Positions 8,716-61,453 of a stretch of 64,000 nucleotides of DNA are shown one piece after another; position 1 is the first letter of the stretch, and every line of letters begins with the position of its first letter. The position numbers and the translations under genes are program-made. Origin of the DNA: Candidatus Pacearchaeota archaeon (GTDB lineage: Archaea > Nanobdellota > Nanobdellia > Pacearchaeales > GW2011-AR1); assembly GCA_017609405.1 (NCBI GenBank), contig JAFCDZ010000001.1, positions 24,880-88,879 of the forward strand, read 5' to 3'. The notes below the pieces were generated by a model that searched no databases, was not told where the DNA came from, and worked only from the letters and a program-made list of their open reading frames with translations.

Positions 8716-10539
8716 ATGTGCGGAATAAATGGATTTAATTTTGTGAACAAAGAATTAATTAAAAAGATGAACAATTCTATAAAACATAGGGGTCCTGATG
8801 CAGAAGGAGTTTTCTCAAAACAAGGTGTGTCCTTAGGCCATAGAAGGCTTGCAATAATTGACTTAAACAAAAGAGGAAACCAACCAATGATGTATGAACA
8901 TAACAAAAATAAAGCAGTGATAGTATTTAACGGAGAGATATACAATTTCAAAGAGTTAAAAGAAGAATTGAAAAAAAGAGGCTATAAATTCAAAACAAAA
9001 ACAGATACAGAGGTAGTTCTAGCAAGCTATATGGAATGGGGTGAAGAGTGTGTCAAAAGATTTAACGGTATGTGGGCTTTTTGCATCTATAATCCAAAAG
9101 AAAAAATTCTCTTTCTAAGCAGAGATCGGTTAGGACAAAAACCTCTTTATTATTTTTATGACGGTAAAAAATTTATCTTTTCCTCAGAAATAAAAGGAAT
9201 ACTTCAACACAAAATAAAATATAGTTTAGATAAAGAAGGAATAGATCTCTATTTCTCCTTAGGATTCATTCCTGCACCAAAAACAATCTATTCAGAAATT
9301 AATAAACTCGAAGCAGGCCATAATATATTTTTTAACTTAAAAACAAAGGAATTTCAAAAGAAAAGATATTTTTATCCTCCAAGATATTCACCAATAAACA
9401 ACAAAAGATATGTAGTTAAAAAAGGAAAGGAATTATTAAGAGATGCTACAAATATAAGACTTATTGCTGATGTTCCTGTTGGTGCTTTTCTAAGTGGGGG
9501 GGTAGATAGTTCATCAATAGTATCAGAGATAACAAATATCTTAGGAAAAAAGAACTTAACAACATATTCTATGGGTTTTGAAAAAGGGTATGATGAAACA
9601 GAATATATCAAAATAATAACGAAGAATCTTAAAGTAAATAACCATCATAGTTACTTTACAAAAAAAGAATTAAACAACACATTAAAATCAATATTTTATT
9701 ATTTTGATGAGCCCCTCTCTGATCCATCCATGTTCCCAACATTCTTACTTTCAAAATTTGCGCGAAAATCTCTAACAGTAGCTTTAAGCGGAGATGGAGG
9801 GGATGAAATGTTTGGTGGATATCCAAGATATAAGATAGCCGCACAAATAGAAATCCTAAGAAAAATTCCAGTAACTCTAAGAAAATTAAGCTTATTAATA
9901 ATACCCAAAACCAAAATACTTTCAAAAATAAGAGAAGGGCTTAAGTTAAGCCTATTACCAAAAGAAGTGTTATATTCTAAAGCAAGAGAAAATGTCTATA
10001 AACCAAGGTCTTACATAAACTTCGTAGAAGAGAAATTTAAAGAATGTTTAAAGTTATCCAAAGGAAATCTAATAGAAGCAATAAGATTGATGGACATTCT
10101 CTATCTTACATTACCAGACAATTATCTAGCAAAAGTGGATAGAGCATCAATGGCTCATTCATTAGAAGTCAGAAGCCCATTCTTAGATTATCGTTTTTTA
10201 GAATTTGCATCCAAAATACCTACAAAATGGAAAGTGTCAATTTTCAATGAAAAAATTTTACTAAAAGGAATTGTCAAGAATCTAATACCAAAAAAAATAA
10301 TAAAACGAAAAAAACAAGGGTTCACGCCCCCAATTGAAAGATGGTTAATTGAAAAAGAAGGTAAAGAAAAATTAAAAGAAATTTTAAAAAAATTAGAAAA
10401 AAAGAAAATAATTGATGATGCATGGATTGAATTCTATAAAGAAAGGATCATAAAAGAGAAAGACCAAATAAGCAAAACATATAGCATAAGACTCTTTATT
10501 TTCTATAAGTGGTTAGAATATTGGGGAAAATCAAAATAA
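8716..10539 (+). CDS. asnB: Asparagine synthase (glutamine-hydrolysing) / amidotransferase
   Basis: N-terminal MCGI (Ntn Cys) and PP-loop SGGVDSS. 607 aa. Sits inside the glycan cluster, as the WbpS/AsnB-like amidotransferases of polysaccharide loci do. Confidence 0.9.
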   Translation: MCGINGFNFVNKELIKKMNNSIKHRGPDAEGVFSKQGVSLGHRRLAIIDLNKRGNQPMMYEHNKNKAVIVFNGEIYNFKELKEELKKRGYKFKTKTDTEVVLASYMEWGEECVKRFNGMWAFCIYNPKEKILFLSRDRLGQKPLYYFYDGKKFIFSSEIKGILQHKIKYSLDKEGIDLYFSLGFIPAPKTIYSEINKLEAGHNIFFNLKTKEFQKKRYFYPPRYSPINNKRYVVKKGKELLRDATNIRLIADVPVGAFLSGGVDSSSIVSEITNILGKKNLTTYSMGFEKGYDETEYIKIITKNLKVNNHHSYFTKKELNNTLKSIFYYFDEPLSDPSMFPTFLLSKFARKSLTVALSGDGGDEMFGGYPRYKIAAQIEILRKIPVTLRKLSLLIIPKTKILSKIREGLKLSLLPKEVLYSKARENVYKPRSYINFVEEKFKECLKLSKGNLIEAIRLMDILYLTLPDNYLAKVDRASMAHSLEVRSPFLDYRFLEFASKIPTKWKVSIFNEKILLKGIVKNLIPKKIIKRKKQGFTPPIERWLIEKEGKEKLKEILKKLEKKKIIDDAWIEFYKERIIKEKDQISKTYSIRLFIFYKWLEYWGKSK

Positions 10540-14879: not shown

Positions 14880-14897
14880 TGGGCGCTGAGGGAATCG
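14880..14897 (-). repeat. Direct copy (17/18 nt) of the 3' terminus of tRNA-Trp, 69 nt downstream of the tRNA in minus orientation
   Basis: tgggcgctgagggaatcg compared with tgggcgcggagggaatcg at 14967-14984, immediately followed by gggcctcac. Confidence 0.85.
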
Positions 14898-14966
14898 GGC
14901 CTCACAAAGTTCGACCTAGTTCGTCTATCGCTACACTCATAGCCAAACTAAACCCAAAGGGTTCGA

Positions 14967-15037
14967 TGGGCGCGGAGGGAATCGAACCCCCGTCTGGCGG
15001 TCTGGAGCCGCCTGTTTTACCATTAAACTACGCACCC
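14967..15037 (-). tRNA. tRNA-Trp (anticodon CCA), no intron, CCA not encoded
   Basis: Reverse complement GGGTGCGTAGTTTAATGGTAAAACAGGCGGCTCCAGACCGCCAGACGGGGGTTCGATTCCCTCCGCGCCCA folds as a cloverleaf: 7-bp acceptor, D arm GTTT/AAAC, anticodon stem GGCGG/CCGCC with loop CTCCAGA, T arm with TTCGATT loop. Confidence 0.8.
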
Positions 15038-21799: not shown

Positions 21800-24781
21800 A
21801 TGATAGAAAAAATAAGAAAAAGAGATGGAAGAATTGTAGCCTTTAATAAGGAGAAAATATTCAACGCAATATGGAAAGCAGTAAAAGCTGTTGGTGGAAG
21901 TGATGAAAAAAAAGCAAGAGAGATAACTGATAAAATCTGCGAGATAATAAACAGCAGATACAAAGATTCTGTTCCAGGAGTAGAAGATATTCAAGACATT
22001 GTTGAAAAAACTCTTATTGAAGAGGGTCATGCAAAAGTCGCGAAAGCATATATTTTATACAGAAAGAAAAGAGAAGAAATGCGCAAATTAGAAGGATTAT
22101 TCAATTCAATTGAAGTTGTGGATAAATATCTTAATACTGAAGATTGGATGGTTAAAGAAAATTCAAATATGGGTTTTTCACTACAAGGATTAAACAATTA
22201 TATCTCAACAAAGATAATCACAAAATACTGGCTTCTAAAAATTTATCCAGAAGAAATACAAAAAGCACATGAAAACTGTGACATCCATATTCATGATTTA
22301 GGAACTCTTGGAGCATATTGTGTTGGCTGGGACTTAAAAGACCTCCTATTAAAAGGTTTTAGAGGCGTTCCTGGAAAAGTTGCATCAAAACCTGCAAAAC
22401 ATTTTAGAACAGCCCTTGGACAAATAGTAAATTTCTTTTACACTCTACAAGGAGAAACAGCAGGAGCCCAGGCATTTTCAAATTTTGATACTTTGCTCGC
22501 CCCTTTTATAAGATATGATAACTTAAGTTATAAAGAAGTAAAACAAGCAATGCAAGAATTCTTATTCAACCTTGCTGTTCCTACAAGAGTAGGGTTTCAA
22601 TGTATGTCAGAAGATACAGAAATATTAACTCCAAAAGGATGGGCAAAGTATAATGAACTTAAAAAAGGAGACATAATAAAAACATTTAACATTAAAAAAG
22701 GAATAATTGAAGATAAACCAATAAGAAGATTATTCAAAAGATATTATGAAGGAACTATGTATAATTTAAAAAATAGGATTCAAGACCAATTAATTTCGCC
22801 AAAACATAGGGTGGTTAGAAAAAAATTCAATTCAGAAGATTATGTTTTAGAGGAAATAGAAGAAGTTGAAAAGCTAAAATCACCAGTAATAGTCCCTATT
22901 GCAGGAAAGAACATCTCAAAAGATGCGAATATAAGTGATGAGCAAATAAAATTAATGGCTTGGATTATAGGTGAAGGGAGTATTGAACGAAGCAAAAAAG
23001 GAACCCAAAGAATAAGCATCTATCAATCAAAAATTAAAAATAAAAATAATTATTTGGAAATAAAAAAACTCCTAAAACATTTTAAATTAGAATTTGAAGA
23101 ATATACTCAAAAAGGATTAGGAAAACCAGTTCAAAGAATAAGATTAAATTCAAATTCTTCAAAAAGAATCCATAAATGGTTTTCAGATGAGAATATCCAT
23201 TTTATTCCTGACATCCTTCTAAATTTAAGCAAAAGGCAATCGAGATTATTCTTAGAGACATATATTAAAGCAGAAGGATTTGAAAAAAGCAAAATAGCAA
23301 CAACAAATAAAAGAATACTTGAAGGGCTTCAACAAATTGTAGTTAATGCTGAATATGGATTTACTGTTCTAAAAAGAAAACCAACAATCGGAACAAAAGA
23401 AATTTATGTTTTAAGAATAATTAGACACAGAGACACATATATTCAAAAAATCAAAAAAGTAAAGTATAAAGGAATTATCTGGTGTCCGAATACAGATAAC
23501 GAAACAGTAATTGCAAAAAGAAATGGAAAAGTTTTCATAACAGGGAATACACCTTTTACAAACCTCACAATGGATCTAAAGGTTCCTGAGTATATGAAAG
23601 AAGAATATGTAATAATTGGAGGAGAACCAAAACAAGAAAAATACAAAGAGTTCCAAAAAGAGATGAACATGATAAATAAAGCTTTTGCAGAATGCATGAT
23701 TGAAGGAGATGGTGAAGGAAGGGTATTCACTTTCCCAATTCCCACATATAATATAACAAAAGACTTTGATTGGGACAATCCAGAGTATGAACCTATATGG
23801 GAAATGACTGCAAAATATGGAATTCCTTATTTTTCAAATTTTATAAATTCAGATATGAAACCTGAAGATGCAAGAAGTATGTGTTGTAGACTTCGTCTTG
23901 ACCAAGCAGAACTAAGAAAAAGGGGTGGAGGATTATTTGGAGCAAATCCTCAAACAGGCTCAATAGGAGTGGTAACGATAAATCTTCCAAGATTAGGTTA
24001 TACATCCAATGAAGAAGGGGAATTTTTCAAGAAATTAGAAAGACTTATGGAAATAGCAAAAGAAAGTTTAGAAATAAAAAGAAAAGTGATTGAAAGATTC
24101 ACAAAAATAGGGCTATATCCTTATTCAAGATATTATTTATCAAATATTTATCAAAGATTCGGAGAATATTGGAAAAATCATTTCTCAACAATAGGGCTTC
24201 TCGGGATGAACGAAGCAATAATGAACTTTTTGCCAGGAGAGGACATAACAACTGAAAAAGGAAGGGCTTTTGCATTAAAAGTTTTAAAATTCATGAGAGA
24301 AAAATTAGAAAAATTCCAAAAAGAAACTGGAAATATATATAATTTAGAAGCAACCCCTGCTGAAGGAACAACATATAGATTTGCGAAAGCAGACAAAGAA
24401 AAATTCCCAAATATAATCGTGGCTAATGAAAAAGCTGTTAGAGAACAAGGAGCAGCACCATATTACACTAACTCAACACAACTTCCAGTAAATTATACTA
24501 ATGACATCTTCGAAGCATTAGATTTGCAAGATGAACTCCAAATACAATATACTGGAGGAACTGTTTTTCATGGATTTATCGGAGAGAAGATACCTCCAGA
24601 ATCAGTAAAGTTAATTGTTAAGAAAATAGCTGAAAATTACAGGCTCCCATATTTTACAATAACCCCAACATTTTCAATATGCCCAATTCACGGATATATT
24701 CCTGGTGAACATGAATACTGCCCAATTTGTGACGAAGAAAATGGAATATTCGAAGAAAAGATAATCCAAAAGGAGGTGTGA
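21800..24781 (+). CDS. nrdD: Anaerobic ribonucleoside-triphosphate reductase (class III, NrdD) catalytic chain, containing an intein; lacks the glycyl-radical segment
   Basis: N-terminal ATP-cone. C-terminal zinc site ICPIHG...CPIC. Context nrdR-nrdD-nrdG. 993 aa, including a ~316-aa intein. Confidence 0.85.
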   Translation: MIEKIRKRDGRIVAFNKEKIFNAIWKAVKAVGGSDEKKAREITDKICEIINSRYKDSVPGVEDIQDIVEKTLIEEGHAKVAKAYILYRKKREEMRKLEGLFNSIEVVDKYLNTEDWMVKENSNMGFSLQGLNNYISTKIITKYWLLKIYPEEIQKAHENCDIHIHDLGTLGAYCVGWDLKDLLLKGFRGVPGKVASKPAKHFRTALGQIVNFFYTLQGETAGAQAFSNFDTLLAPFIRYDNLSYKEVKQAMQEFLFNLAVPTRVGFQCMSEDTEILTPKGWAKYNELKKGDIIKTFNIKKGIIEDKPIRRLFKRYYEGTMYNLKNRIQDQLISPKHRVVRKKFNSEDYVLEEIEEVEKLKSPVIVPIAGKNISKDANISDEQIKLMAWIIGEGSIERSKKGTQRISIYQSKIKNKNNYLEIKKLLKHFKLEFEEYTQKGLGKPVQRIRLNSNSSKRIHKWFSDENIHFIPDILLNLSKRQSRLFLETYIKAEGFEKSKIATTNKRILEGLQQIVVNAEYGFTVLKRKPTIGTKEIYVLRIIRHRDTYIQKIKKVKYKGIIWCPNTDNETVIAKRNGKVFITGNTPFTNLTMDLKVPEYMKEEYVIIGGEPKQEKYKEFQKEMNMINKAFAECMIEGDGEGRVFTFPIPTYNITKDFDWDNPEYEPIWEMTAKYGIPYFSNFINSDMKPEDARSMCCRLRLDQAELRKRGGGLFGANPQTGSIGVVTINLPRLGYTSNEEGEFFKKLERLMEIAKESLEIKRKVIERFTKIGLYPYSRYYLSNIYQRFGEYWKNHFSTIGLLGMNEAIMNFLPGEDITTEKGRAFALKVLKFMREKLEKFQKETGNIYNLEATPAEGTTYRFAKADKEKFPNIIVANEKAVREQGAAPYYTNSTQLPVNYTNDIFEALDLQDELQIQYTGGTVFHGFIGEKIPPESVKLIVKKIAENYRLPYFTITPTFSICPIHGYIPGEHEYCPICDEENGIFEEKIIQKEV
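22601..23548 (+). mobile_element. Intein with a LAGLIDADG homing-endonuclease domain, inserted in NrdD
   Basis: Begins with Cys (CMSEDTEILTPKGW, intein block A). Two LAGLIDADG-like motifs (LMAWIIGEGS; LFLETYIKAEGF). Ends ...VFITGN followed by Thr (+1 nucleophile). Flanked by conserved NrdD extein sequence. Confidence 0.8.
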
Positions 24782-33194: not shown

Positions 33195-33212
33195 ATGGAC
33201 CCGGAGGGAATC
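33195..33212 (-). repeat. Perfect 18-nt direct copy of the 3' terminus of tRNA-Arg, 132 nt downstream of the tRNA in minus orientation
   Basis: tggacccggagggaatcg at 33195-33212 equals 33345-33362, followed by gggcctcac as at the other two tRNA loci. Confidence 0.85.
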
Positions 33213-33344
33213 GGGCCTCACAGCAACACTGAAGCTCGACCTAATTCGTCTACTCCCTTCAGTCGTAGCCAAATAGGCCTCATATCAAAGATATTCGACC
33301 TGCTTCGCCCAAGCGTGGTCAAAGCAAACCTAAAGGTTCGATTA

Positions 33345-33416
33345 TGGACCCGGAGGGAATCGAACCCCCACCAGCCGGGCCGAAACCGGATATTCTATCC
33401 ATTAAACTACGGGTCC
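33345..33416 (-). tRNA. tRNA-Arg (probable anticodon TCG), CCA not encoded
   Basis: Reverse complement GGACCCGTAGTTTAATGGATAGAATATCCGGTTTCGGCCCGGCTGGTGGGGGTTCGATTCCCTCCGGGTCCA. Perfect 7-bp acceptor, T arm with TTCGATT, anticodon loop TTTCGGC. There is one mismatch at the top of the anticodon stem, so the anticodon call is less certain. Confidence 0.7.
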
Positions 33417-33682
33417 AATCTAATAAAGAAGATAAGGTTTTTTAATTTATTCATAAGACAATTTAGTTGAAAAATTCGTCTTAGAAATTAATTCATACAA
33501 CCAAAGGAGTTAGTAAAAAAGTTTCACATCATTATCAGTAATAAAACATCTTGCTCAACAAGCTAAAAATTAAAGAGCTTGTTAAACCCTAACTAAATGC
33601 TGACCACGCCAAAATTTATCGCACTAACACTTCAATATTTTCAAAACCAAAAAAATAAAAATAGAAAAAAACATAAAGAGAA

Positions 33683-59792: not shown

Positions 59793-60164
59793 ATGGTAAC
59801 AAGAACTGGAAGAAAGATAACTGGTGGAAGATACAAAAAAAGCAGGAAAAAGAAAGCCTATGAAAGACAAGGGCAAAGAAGAATTGTAAAAGTAAGAGAC
59901 AAAGAAAAAAGAAAAAACCTTCGTGCAAGAGGAGGAAACATAAAAACAGTTTTATATTCTGCAAAATATGTTAATGTAGTTGATGAAAAAAAAGCAATAA
60001 AATTAGAAATAAAAAGGGTTCTTGAAACACCTTCAAACAGATTCCTCGCAAGACAAGGGATTATAACAAAAGGAGCAATCATTGAAACTGAAAAAGGAAA
60101 AGTAAAAATAACCAATAGACCAAGTCAAGAAGGTATTGTAAATGGGATTTTTATAAAAGAATAA
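59793..60164 (+). CDS. rps8e: Ribosomal protein S8e
   Basis: RTGRKITGGRYKKSRKKKAYERQG...NVVDEKKAIKLEIKRVLETPSNRFLARQGIITKGAIIETEKGK. 123 aa. Confidence 0.85.
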   Translation: MVTRTGRKITGGRYKKSRKKKAYERQGQRRIVKVRDKEKRKNLRARGGNIKTVLYSAKYVNVVDEKKAIKLEIKRVLETPSNRFLARQGIITKGAIIETEKGKVKITNRPSQEGIVNGIFIKE

Positions 60165-60196
60165 TCTTATAGAATTTGTCAGAGTTCTATTAATCT

Positions 60197-60243
60197 AAAC
60201 CAAAGGTTCGAATCAGAATTAATAATGCGGGAGACAGGATTCG
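60197..60243 (-). repeat. 47-nt direct copy of the tRNA-Leu 3' terminus (18 nt) plus its 3' trailer (about 29 nt), about 152 nt from the original
   Basis: aaaccaaaggttcgaatcagaattaataatgcgggagacaggattcg compared with 60349-60397 (one extra c and one extra g in the original), followed by gggcctca. Confidence 0.85.
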
Positions 60244-60379
60244 GGCCTCATGGCGATTTCTTAAATCGACATTGACAAAATCTTTGATTTTAGTCTTGTT
60301 ATAAACATTCGACCTGATACGCTTACTCACTTCGTTTGTAATCATATCAAACCCAAAGGGTTCGAATCAGAATTAATAA

Positions 60380-60463
60380 TGCGGGAGACAGGATTCGAAC
60401 CTGCGCAGGCACTAAGCCACAGGATCTTAAGTCCTGCCCGTTTGACCGCTCCGGCACTCCCGC
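60380..60463 (-). tRNA. tRNA-Leu (anticodon TAA), long variable arm, CCA not encoded
   Basis: Reverse complement GCGGGAGTGCCGGAGCGGTCAAACGGGCAGGACTTAAGATCCTGTGGCTTAGTGCCTGCGCAGGTTCGAATCCTGTCTCCCGCA. Anticodon stem CAGGA/TCCTG, loop CTTAAGA, class II variable arm, T loop TTCGAAT. Confidence 0.75.
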
Positions 60464-60499
60464 CTAATAAAAAAAAGAGAAGAAGACAATATAAAAACT

Positions 60500-61453
60500 T
60501 TATGAATTAGATTTTTTCTTCTTTTTTAACTCAGATTCTTTTTCATGAACTTTTTCCTCAAGCTTAAGTTTTTCAATTAATTCTTTATATCTGTTTCTTA
60601 TTGTAACTTCTGTTATTCCTGCAACATCTGCAACCTCTCTCTGCGTCTTTTTCTCATCATTCATCAATGCAGCAACATATAAAGCAGCAGCTGCAATTCC
60701 TGCAGGACCTCTTCCAGAAGTTAGCTCAGAACCAACAGCTTCGTCAAGAATTTTAATTGCTTCATTTTGAGTTTTTGGAGAAAGATTTAAAACAGAAGAA
60801 AATCTCAAGATATAATCTTTTGGTGAGCTTTGTTTAACCTTAATTCCCAATTTTCTTACTATAAATCTGTATGTCCTTCCAATCTCTTTTCTCTCAACAT
60901 TTGAAGCAGTTGCCATCTCATCCAAAGTTCTTGGGATATTATATGAACGACAAGCAGCATATAAACATGCAGCAATAACTGATTCCATACTCCTTCCCCT
61001 AACCAAACCTCTTTGAAGAACATAATTGTAAATTCTTGCTGCCTCATCTCTTATAACATTTGGAAGATGAAGATAAGAAGCAATAACCCTTAATTCAGCC
61101 ATAGCAAGCCTAAGATTTCTCTCAATAGATGTAGAAACCCTTTCTTGCCACTTTTTTAATCTTAAGAATTTTCTTGTCTGAGAAGGGTCTAATTTATAAA
61201 TATCTGATATTTCTCCAACATTTGTTGTCAAACCCCCATCAAATTTCTGCATAGAAATTGGTGCTCCACCCCTGCTTGTTTTTTCTGTTTTATCAAATTT
61301 TCCTCCAGCATCACGCCCCTCATCAACCATACTCTCTTCAACAACAAGACCGCAATCATTACAGATTATCTCTCCTTTTTGAGGATCATAAGTTAAATTA
61401 ACACTTCCACACTCAGGACATTTTTTTATTGCGTGCATTTTAGAACTTAACAA
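60500..61453 (-). CDS. tfb: Transcription initiation factor IIB (TFB)
   Basis: N-terminal zinc ribbon CPECGSVNLTYDPQKGEIICNDCGLV followed by two cyclin-like repeats. 317 aa. Confidence 0.9.
   Translation of the reverse strand: MLSSKMHAIKKCPECGSVNLTYDPQKGEIICNDCGLVVEESMVDEGRDAGGKFDKTEKTSRGGAPISMQKFDGGLTTNVGEISDIYKLDPSQTRKFLRLKKWQERVSTSIERNLRLAMAELRVIASYLHLPNVIRDEAARIYNYVLQRGLVRGRSMESVIAACLYAACRSYNIPRTLDEMATASNVERKEIGRTYRFIVRKLGIKVKQSSPKDYILRFSSVLNLSPKTQNEAIKILDEAVGSELTSGRGPAGIAAAALYVAALMNDEKKTQREVADVAGITEVTIRNRYKELIEKLKLEEKVHEKESELKKKKKSNS

Follow-up and report, generated by a model that had tools for sequence, protein, structure and literature searches.

A candidate tRNA-gene-specific insertion element with an RNA-type fold in DPANN archaea

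tRNA genes are classical landing sites of mobile DNA, and their known occupants are large and bring their own integrase. Integrating elements make partial tRNA-gene duplications that form attL and attR, with the T loop as one sublocation (PMC9897764, citing Williams 2002). In Aciduliprofundum boonei, the T-psi-C-loop part of a tRNA-Pro acts as a leader for the casposase, which makes a 15-bp target-site duplication (TSD) at the gene end and can build polar tandem arrays (PMC5137440).

Here we describe a much smaller occupant, found in a 64-kb chromosomal stretch (the window, to which all positions refer) of a Pacearchaeota-type DPANN archaeon. The gene content of the window is housekeeping, and the top homologues of its TFIIB and FEN1 are labelled Candidatus Pacearchaeota or Nanoarchaeota. 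The window holds three tRNA genes, Trp, Arg(UCG) and Leu(UAA), all on the minus strand, and three copies of the element, each flanked by 18-nt repeats. As in integrase att duplications, the direct repeat begins in the T loop and stops where the tRNA does, its upstream copy makes the tRNA complete, and tandem accretion is possible. Unlike those duplications, the insert measures 65-130 bp and comes without integrase, cargo or foreign island; the module is conserved, structured and strand-specific, its 5' arm complements the T arm, and one family occupies nine tRNA anticodon types.

The element would share with casposon and CRISPR spacer integration (PMC5137440) a T-loop "leader", a long duplication of fixed length beside it and the placement of each new copy upstream of the previous one. 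However, just 5 of the 15 bp of the casposon TSD overlap the tRNA, whereas here 18 bp lie wholly within C56-N73; casposons are large, have terminal inverted repeats and encode Cas1 and PolB, whereas this element is ~65 nt, lacks inverted termini and has no Cas1 that we could see. The sole family B polymerase in the window is of the ordinary DNA_pol_B plus exonuclease type. With no Cas1 among the window ORFs examined and an 18-bp repeat inside the tRNA in place of a 14-15-bp TSD beside a T-loop leader, casposon-type integration by Cas1 was rejected, only the leader-anchored logic being similar. Thus, we regard the casposase as the nearest precedent by analogy, the resemblance being one of logic only.

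The tRNA-Leu locus and its two sister loci

The intact tRNA-Leu(UAA) gene occupies 60380..60463 on the minus strand (ARAGORN; 58.8 bits with Rfam RF00005), and its last 18 nt, from C56 to the discriminator A73, are 60380-60397. The original prediction had described a repeat spanning the tRNA-Leu 3' end and its trailer hairpin. This repeat exists: the 49 nt at 60349-60397, which comprise the 18 3'-terminal nt of the tRNA and 29-31 nt of trailer, recur as 47 nt at 60197-60243, with a gapless core of 47 nt at 94% identity and a spacing of 154; within it, 60380-60397 is exactly repeated at 60226-60243. The downstream motifs that had been named, GGGCCTCA and AGGTCGAAT on the tRNA strand, are present at the locus, and GGGCCTCA and AGGTCGAA were correctly placed downstream of the repeat. 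The idea of a ~152-bp tandem duplication, in contrast, was not borne out: Tandem Repeats Finder reports no array across 59900-60700, and just 47-49 of the ~152 nt recur. The ~105 nt between the two copies are unrepeated and form a distinct conserved non-coding element.

Read on the minus strand, the locus continues from the tRNA end with the spacer TTATTAATTCT (60369..60379), which sequence comparison shows to be duplicated along with the element. It leads to the 5' arm, GATTCG (60363..60368), which the pairs in the folds and the alignment identify as the 5' strand of a helix that we call P0; together with the following AACC, this arm is a perfect 10-nt (10/10) reverse complement of the tRNA T arm, G52-C61. 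Hairpin 1, AACCC-TTT-GGGTT (60350..60362), has four invariant pairs in fold and alignment. Hairpin 2 (60315..60349) is variable in sequence with a covarying stem, 10 of its 11 pairs showing compensatory changes across the family, and its closing U-A pair takes the A from AGGTCGA. Hairpin 3 (60244..60314), recognised by motifs, fold, covariance model (CM) and alignment, has a GGUC/GGCC stem with a conserved U.G pair and tandem G.A/A.G pairs (GA...UGA); its upper part is unusually long at Leu, 58 nt. The distal copy of C56-A73 follows at 60226..60243, identical in the alignment at 18/18 positions. Its first 6 nt (60238-60243) are the 3' strand of P0, and the four bases before it read GGCC, in contrast to GGTT in the tRNA.

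Beyond the distal copy, the repeat alignment reveals the remnant of a second, older element copy (60197..60225, minus strand), which ends before hairpin 2. The remnant has the same spacer, the same 5' arm GATTCG and a hairpin 1, AACC-TTT-GGTT, that is 1 bp shorter, and a weak partial CM match of 16 bits falls on it (60171-60217). The longer repeat at Leu is best read as the trace of a second, truncated element copy that follows the first and comprises spacer, 5' arm and hairpin 1. L108 and L122, two loci in other genomes, show a like arrangement.

A third instance of this architecture within 64 kb had been claimed, correctly: tRNA-Trp (14967-15037) and tRNA-Arg(UCG) (33345-33417), both on the minus strand and identified with Rfam, share the Leu layout. 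The three window tRNAs score 59-69 bits with RF00005. Behind tRNA-Trp, the sister element at 14898..14966 (minus strand; CM 41.7 bits, motifs, fold) consists of TCGAACCCTTTGGGTTT, hairpin 2 and AGGTCGA..TGAGGCC, and the distal copy of C56-A73 at 14880..14897 is 17/18 identical, with C66 changed to A. Behind tRNA-Arg, alignment and CM place at 33214..33344 (minus strand) an element with 5' arm, hairpin 1 and two hairpin-2/hairpin-3 modules in series; its distal copy of C56-A73 at 33196..33213 is 18/18 identical and is followed by T6. The common order in tRNA sense is the tRNA, a 0-13 nt spacer, (W)TCGAACC(C)TTTGG(G)TTT, ~30 nt with a hairpin, AGGTCGAR, 6-58 nt, UGAGGCC and a copy of the tRNA's own last 18 nt. 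Within the 64 kb, the three conserved motifs are found at the three tRNA loci only, and none of 100 shuffles reaches three matches per motif. The hairpin-2 sequence is common to the three window copies and was not seen in other genomes.

Could the Leu repeat be a local tandem duplication made by replication slippage, as had been offered, or an assembly artefact? Two near-identical segments of 47-49 nt, 152-154 bp apart, are what such an explanation would start from. In fact, a head-to-tail array is not detected, and slippage or simple tandem duplication fits poorly with a covarying ~65-nt module that recurs with differing tRNA-specific repeats at 13 tRNA loci, for nine anticodon types and in independent assemblies. 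Moreover, the two Leu copies differ solely by two 1-nt deletions, one C and one G, which together cost hairpin 1 a base pair (AACCC/GGGTT to AACC/GGTT). Because this compensatory loss preserves the hairpin, it argues against assembly collapse or expansion. On the comparison of the Leu copies, the Tandem Repeats Finder result and the multi-locus table we rejected slippage and artefact, which we consider effectively refuted.

A structured element family behind DPANN tRNA genes

Relatives were found by strict three-motif pattern scans of GTDB genomes (at least 12 stretches) and JGI metagenomes (at least 14). Matches in high-GC bacteria were rejected as chance; every AT-rich match listed comes from a MAG labelled Nanoarchaeota or Woesearchaeota, or from a similar contig, and sits immediately after a tRNA. 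In addition to all three window tRNAs, the family occupies at least ten further tRNA loci in other DPANN (Nanoarchaeota, Pacearchaeota, Woesearchaeota) assemblies. The pattern scans place it behind tRNA-Thr (L106 and L128), tRNA-Ser (L108, L113 and L119), tRNA-Gln (L114 and L127), tRNA-Phe (L121), tRNA-Leu-CAA (L122 and L131), tRNA-Leu-UAG (L123) and an intron-containing tRNA-Arg-UCG (L125). Without exception, the tRNA is intact and the element follows its 3' end directly, on the same strand, and begins with a mostly T-rich spacer of 0-14 nt (83 nt at L125). A 5' arm complementary to the T arm of that tRNA is followed by three hairpins, AACC/GGTT, a variable covarying stem and GGUC-GA...UGA-GGCC. 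The element ends in UGAGGCC, and next comes an exact copy of the tRNA segment that spans T-loop C56 to N73, the discriminator. Elements are ~65-130 nt in size and non-coding, and the 65-130 bp between the repeats hold only spurious ORFs.

Across the 13-locus table, the borders are remarkably constant. The distal copy starts at C56 at all tabulated loci and is 17-18/18 identical to the tRNA C56-N73 at 10 of the 11 scorable loci; beyond N73, the two copies share a few T/A-rich bases at most, unless a second element follows. CC stands in place of T54T55 before the distal copy at 12 of the 13 loci. A covariance model built from five members and run over 242 kb of DPANN sequence recovered 15 full copies, every one directly 3' of a tRNA and none elsewhere; two extra weak matches are hairpin-1-only remnants.

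The minimum free energy folds of several members form a four-way junction without linker nucleotides. Its closing helix, P0, pairs GAWUCG, just 5' of hairpin 1, with CGAWUC, the first six nt of the distal tRNA copy. In hairpin 1, AACC pairs with GGUU; the sequences of hairpin 2 are unrelated between genomes, yet it is a stem throughout; hairpin 3 combines GGUC/GGCC and its conserved U.G pair with tandem G.A/A.G pairs and a variable upper stem. Folding energy by itself is weak (z-scores of -0.85 to -3.3), so the structural case rests on covariation. In a model-guided alignment, fitted to the structure it scores, 94.8% of cells are paired against 75.9% in shuffles, a level that 0 of 500 shuffles reach; the same fitted alignment has 78 double-change cells where 25 are expected, compensatory changes at 10 of the 11 hairpin-2 pairs, and half the pairing once partners are shifted by one column. 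G.U/U.G pairs outnumber A.C/C.A pairs by 38 to 4, which assigns the structure to the strand in tRNA sense, in the form of RNA or possibly of single-stranded DNA. Taken as a model, this fold implies that the element is probably transcribed and that the structure would be important for it. Since the element is too small for a promoter of its own, we presume read-through from the tRNA promoter. Some spacers hold T5-T7 runs, which are expected to lower read-through transcription and count against it; the T-runs before and after the element are inconsistent between loci.

The 5' arm is tied to the tRNA that it follows. Together with AACC it is an 8-10/10 reverse complement of its own tRNA's T arm G52-C61, and the P0 pair opposite T-loop position 59 tracks the tRNA: U-A in ten cases (A59), A-U in four (U59) and G-C in one (C59). 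Because of this complementarity, the optimal fold of the L114 read-through transcript pairs the T arm with the 5' arm, and the distal copy takes the place of the acceptor strand. By analogy only, the GAWUCG-AACC arm recalls the internal guide sequence of group I introns and the EBS/IBS pairings of group II introns, in that one continuous arm pairs with both sides of the insertion site and covaries with the target; its two partners are CGAWUC, at positions 56-61, and GGUU, which is identical to positions 52-55. Unlike those guides, the element has no ribozyme core and no bulge-helix-bulge (BHB), the GGUU partner lies inside the element, and neither splicing nor reverse splicing is indicated.

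The element matches none of the RNA classes with which it was compared. No Rfam 15 family covers it at gathering or E-value threshold, the matches obtained being at chance level; one chance-level snoRNA match lies on the opposite strand. At the E-value threshold, the tRNA covariance model (RF00005) matches the true tRNA alone at the Leu locus and at L114. In a C/D box sRNA, a C box (RUGAUGA) and a D box (CUGA) form a k-turn. AGGUCGAR and UGAGGCC make tandem G.A pairs with no 3-nt bulge and no boxes, and this class was rejected. An archaeal BHB intron has two 3-nt bulges with a 4-bp helix between them at its boundaries, and leaves the tRNA incomplete unless spliced. Here the tRNA is complete without splicing, every predicted fold puts the boundaries at the ends of helices, and the class was dismissed after inspection for the motif. 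A split-tRNA 3' half of the Nanoarchaeum type, which goes with a separate 5'-half gene, is rejected because at every locus the tRNA just upstream is intact. H/ACA sRNA, hammerhead or hairpin ribozyme, retron and PBS-like primer site were dismissed by inspection and Rfam, their motifs being absent or in the wrong strand or orientation.

Insertion element, host RNA or integrase scar

To explain this family, we have to consider how it is distributed. All three window tRNAs are occupied. Other tRNAs on element-bearing contigs are without it (Gln on L106, Glu on L114 and L127, Leu-AAG on L122, Cys, Arg and Ala on L123), as are the tRNAs of the window's closest sampled relatives, and each GTDB genome among the matches listed has one strict-pattern match. 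From these sequence comparisons, such patchy occupancy suggests a selfish-type distribution, which would favour an insertion element. Tandem copies occur as well: L122 carries two full units, with the 18-nt segment and one and the same spacer ahead of each; at L108 and window Leu, what comes after the full unit is another spacer, 5' arm and hairpin 1. Since the spacer is copied along with the element in each of these three cases, the 5' border of the element falls right after N73. There are also signs of decay and rearrangement. The Trp distal copy has one substitution, the L131 distal copy an indel, and the L119 distal copy is split by two insertions relative to its orthologue L113; unit 2 of L122 is backed by a foreign tRNA 3' end; and a short, motif-poor variant sits behind tRNA-Leu(UAG) at L133-L136.

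Both window loci that can be compared with relatives sit at synteny breakpoints; like the tandem, decayed and rearranged copies and the hairpin-2 sequence shared within the window, this counts as a sign of mobility. S8e and TFIIB are adjacent and co-directional in relatives; in the window they converge on tRNA-Leu and the element. Upstream of FEN1, the relatives lack a tRNA-Arg. The relatives for TFIIB (L001-L003, L132-L136) and FEN1 (L137-L139) have other gene orders, with no orthologous tRNA in place. Among them we found no empty-site/filled-site pair of orthologous loci, and for this reason mobility is something that we infer.

The repeat, then, is not a simple tandem duplication; together with the module it looks like an undescribed tRNA-gene-specific insertion element. 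The explanation that we tentatively prefer is a family specific to DPANN tRNA genes: a non-autonomous, T-loop-anchored insertion element with an 18-bp target duplication and read-through transcription. The 18-nt repeat would be a target-site duplication of fixed length produced on insertion. Insertion would be anchored on the universal T-loop sequence, with borders at U55|C56 and 18 bp away; the second border would be the exact 3' end of the gene in every tRNA, leaving the tRNA intact. Because the stretch from C56 to the discriminator measures 18 nt whatever the tRNA, an 18-bp TSD of fixed length reproduces the repeat without the element having to carry any tRNA-specific sequence. GGCC instead of GGTT before the distal copy may inactivate that copy as a target, and new copies would then land beside the tRNA and build polar tandem arrays. 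The element would have neither promoter nor ORF of its own and would be transcribed by read-through from the tRNA promoter; its propagation or stability would depend on the conserved RNA fold, and its mobilising enzyme would be encoded elsewhere. Several observations count against such an element. It has no terminal inverted repeats, and an 18-bp TSD exceeds that of most transposases. The match of the 5' arm to position 59 of each tRNA requires base-pairing targeting or compensation after insertion. A structure so strongly conserved between divergent genomes would be compatible with a host function, too. Finally, no mobilising enzyme was seen among the ORFs examined in the 64-kb window or next to other copies: Pfam searches, run on the 40 largest ORFs of the window and on 20 that neighbour other copies, found no integrase, transposase, recombinase, Cas1, TnpB/IscB/Cas/IS110-type protein or reverse transcriptase, all of these ORFs being housekeeping.

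Small size, lack of coding capacity, multiple copies, patchiness, within-genome families and flanking direct repeats recall MITEs and other non-autonomous elements such as SINEs; an apparent dependence on a tRNA-type transcription unit and a cloverleaf-like fold recall SINEs in particular. Unlike these elements, the family has no terminal inverted repeats and is strictly specific for the tRNA 3' end. A MITE was rejected on its termini: the two ends, a T-rich spacer with GAWTCGAACC... and ...UGAGGCC, are not inverted repeats, and the sole inverted pairing at the element ends, P0, involves target-derived sequence. We know of no archaeal SINE-like retroelement or partner reverse transcriptase, and saw none in this material.

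The evidence that makes the fold convincing also speaks for a host-encoded, co-transcribed tRNA-like small RNA or processing module, an unlikely but serious alternative. RNase Z and RNase P would excise the cloverleaf-like element from a tRNA-element transcript; it could then, for instance, be of use to the cell as a stable sRNA or help the tRNA before it to mature at its 3' end, and the 18-nt copy would be kept since its first 6 nt build the closing helix. Strong covariation with sense-strand G.U pairs, four helices in tRNA order without linkers (a 6-bp closing helix, a 4-bp D-arm-like hairpin, a long middle hairpin and a T-arm-like hairpin), conservation across several divergent DPANN lineages and a full read-through transcript that can fold with the distal copy as acceptor strand all fit this proposal. 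Dicistronic tRNA-sRNA units do exist (plant tRNA-snoRNA, MALAT1/mascRNA) and likewise place a structured small RNA beside a tRNA-type structure, from which release by RNase Z or RNase P is conceivable; unlike them, the element has no C/D or H/ACA boxes and no tRNA-CM match (the Rfam tRNA model does not recognise it), and those systems lack the duplicated tRNA 3' segment. For a processing function it is odd that most tRNAs on the same contigs and in close relatives do without the element. The fold needs 6 nt of the copy, yet 18 are copied and the other 12 decay at L119, L131 and Trp, and tandem and truncated copies fit such a role poorly.

An att duplication by integrase had been the other suggestion for the Leu repeat, and it holds in part: the geometry of the repeat, from T loop to tRNA end, is as expected, but cargo and integrase are missing and the insert has an RNA-type structure. 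In its strongest form, the family would be a miniature site-specific integrative element, cargo-less and CIME-like, with its own tRNA 3' segment as attP, served in trans by a T-loop-class tyrosine integrase of a virus or plasmid and accreting in tandem through repeated integration. The direct repeat from T loop to tRNA 3' end is the classical signature of tRNA-gene integration (PMC9897764), and the tandem arrays and the rearrangements at elements agree with it. A classical integrase island was nevertheless rejected; it would have such repeats, but the integrase and cargo between them are missing. Just 65-130 bp lie between the repeats, and the ORFs examined in the 64 kb and beside other copies include no integrase. 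Sequences related to the element are also lacking in viral contigs and in phage and plasmid collections. A viral-contig scan for the hairpin-3 motif gave at least 102 stretches, and none of the matches listed has a plausible tRNA 3' end or a nearby duplicate; the pattern of tRNA T arm plus hairpin 1 had 0 matches in viral contigs; and blastn against phage and plasmid collections returned nothing similar. A viral origin is thus unsupported by these searches. Strand-specific, RNA-like covariation is unexpected for double-stranded att arms, and each of the nine occupied anticodon types would require its own matching attP. It is for this last reason that we prefer an insertion element with a TSD to an attP mini-element, which we regard as rather improbable.

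Much less probable still is a guide-like RNA, in which the hairpins would be a scaffold and the 18 nt at its 3' end a guide with the very sequence that follows GGTT in the tRNA gene, GGTT itself being a possible PAM or TAM. A nuclease or transposase encoded elsewhere would then home next to tRNA genes, and GGCC in the element would prevent self-targeting. A 5' scaffold with a target-identical 18-nt segment at its 3' end is the geometry of such guides; CC replaces T54T55 before the distal copy at all but one of the tabulated loci, and the 5' border of the element lies 18 nt from the putative TAM. Type V-K CRISPR-associated transposons carry homing guides against tRNA genes. However, no effector gene or domain was found in the ORFs examined, and the first 6 nt of the would-be guide, its seed, are base-paired in the conserved fold. 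GGCC is already accounted for as the 3' strand of hairpin 3, and known scaffolds of omega-RNA or tracrRNA are much longer than this one. On the ORFs examined and the conserved fold, the segment does not qualify as the guide of an RNA-guided nuclease or transposase.

Going further than the insertion element that we prefer, the family could represent a class of mobile element new to archaea, in which a tiny parasite with an RNA structure exploits tRNA transcription units and is targeted by base pairing, or else a natural guide-like RNA against tRNA genes; we find this possible, though doubtful. As a mobile class, its 5' arm would find the target by pairing with the universal T loop, the 18-bp repeat would be duplicated in a leader-anchored manner, as in casposon or CRISPR-spacer integration, and the change of T54T55 to CC would protect the occupied site.

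Consequences for tRNA genes and DPANN genomes

Partial tRNA duplications from integrating elements are known (PMC9897764). What is new is the insert, a ~65-nt, cargo-less, structured and T-loop-matched module whose description is absent from Rfam and from the literature searched. The family is distinctive in its size of ~65 nt, its four-way-junction, RNA-type fold, its T-loop-matched arm and its precise 18-nt duplication that spares the tRNA. Were it mobile, no smaller tRNA-specific element would be known, it would be a rare documented mobile element in the tiny genomes of DPANN archaea, and its polar, repeat-separated arrays would offer a new point of comparison for the growth of casposon and CRISPR arrays. 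If it is a host RNA, it would be a new family of tRNA-linked structured RNAs. Either way, the element explains the partial tRNA "pseudogenes" and spurious small ORFs that annotation pipelines can be expected to call at these places, and it marks rearrangement breakpoints in the genomes that bear it.

A possible read-through transcript of tRNA and element

The whole transcript of tRNA, element and distal copy was folded for the comparison locus L114 (2290-2447). In the predicted minimum-energy structure, the distal copy pairs with the 5' acceptor strand of the tRNA, the 5' arm of the element pairs with the tRNA T arm, and the genuine tRNA 3' end is looped out. A read-through transcript could therefore, on this model, compete with normal tRNA folding.

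Rearranged, split and partial copies

At the tRNA-Leu-CAA locus L122, which has two tandem units, the second unit (10026-10111) ends in CTGAGG. The sequence after it, TTCGAATCCTGGCCTCTACA, comes from the 3' end of another tRNA and retains TT, not CC. This arrangement looks like ectopic recombination between the element and another tRNA locus. At the tRNA-Ser locus L119 (7480-7545), two insertions of about 25 and 28 nt interrupt the distal copy of the tRNA 3' end; both are missing from the orthologous and otherwise identical locus L113 (2985-3005). The first of them is similar to a portion of hairpin 3 of the element itself.

In four further relatives (L133, 5289-5425; also L134-L136), a tRNA-Leu(UAG) gene lies downstream of TFIIB, and 34 nt beyond it comes a copy of the gene's 3' end with 16/18 matches. 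Neither hairpin 1 nor the AGGTCGA motif is present here, and only TGAGG and a CGAAC stretch are left. The arrangement represents a decayed element or else a different, second kind of duplication of a tRNA 3' end.

Gene order around tRNA-Leu

Across positions 59793-61453 of the window, the genes for ribosomal protein S8e (+) and TFIIB (-) converge, with tRNA-Leu and its element in between. In the relatives L001 and L133-L136, in contrast, S8e adjoins TFIIB and both are co-directional, so that an inversion breakpoint coincides with the element. A tRNA-Leu gene with an element lies directly after TFIIB in two different genomes (L123, 95-1169; window, 60380-61453), with anticodon UAG in the former and UAA in the latter.

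Introns, a candidate intein and overlapping reading frames

Relatives carry long introns in tRNA-Leu-UAA (151 nt; L001, 12555-12705), tRNA-Glu (203 nt; L114, 2814-3016), tRNA-Gln (127 nt; L106, 7403-7529) and tRNA-Arg-UCG (91 nt; L125, 10848-10938); the Leu-UAA and Arg-UCG genes of the window are intron-less. Within the anaerobic ribonucleotide reductase NrdD of the window (993 aa; 21800-24781), residues 387-453, between the ATP-cone and catalytic parts, give a weak LAGLIDADG_3 match, which probably reflects an intein.

Two reading frames overlap elements in the window: one of 51 codons (60190-60345, minus strand) and one of 91 codons that also crosses the tRNA-Arg gene (33195-33470, plus strand). 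Both are almost certainly spurious, and yet genome annotation is likely to list them as hypothetical proteins.
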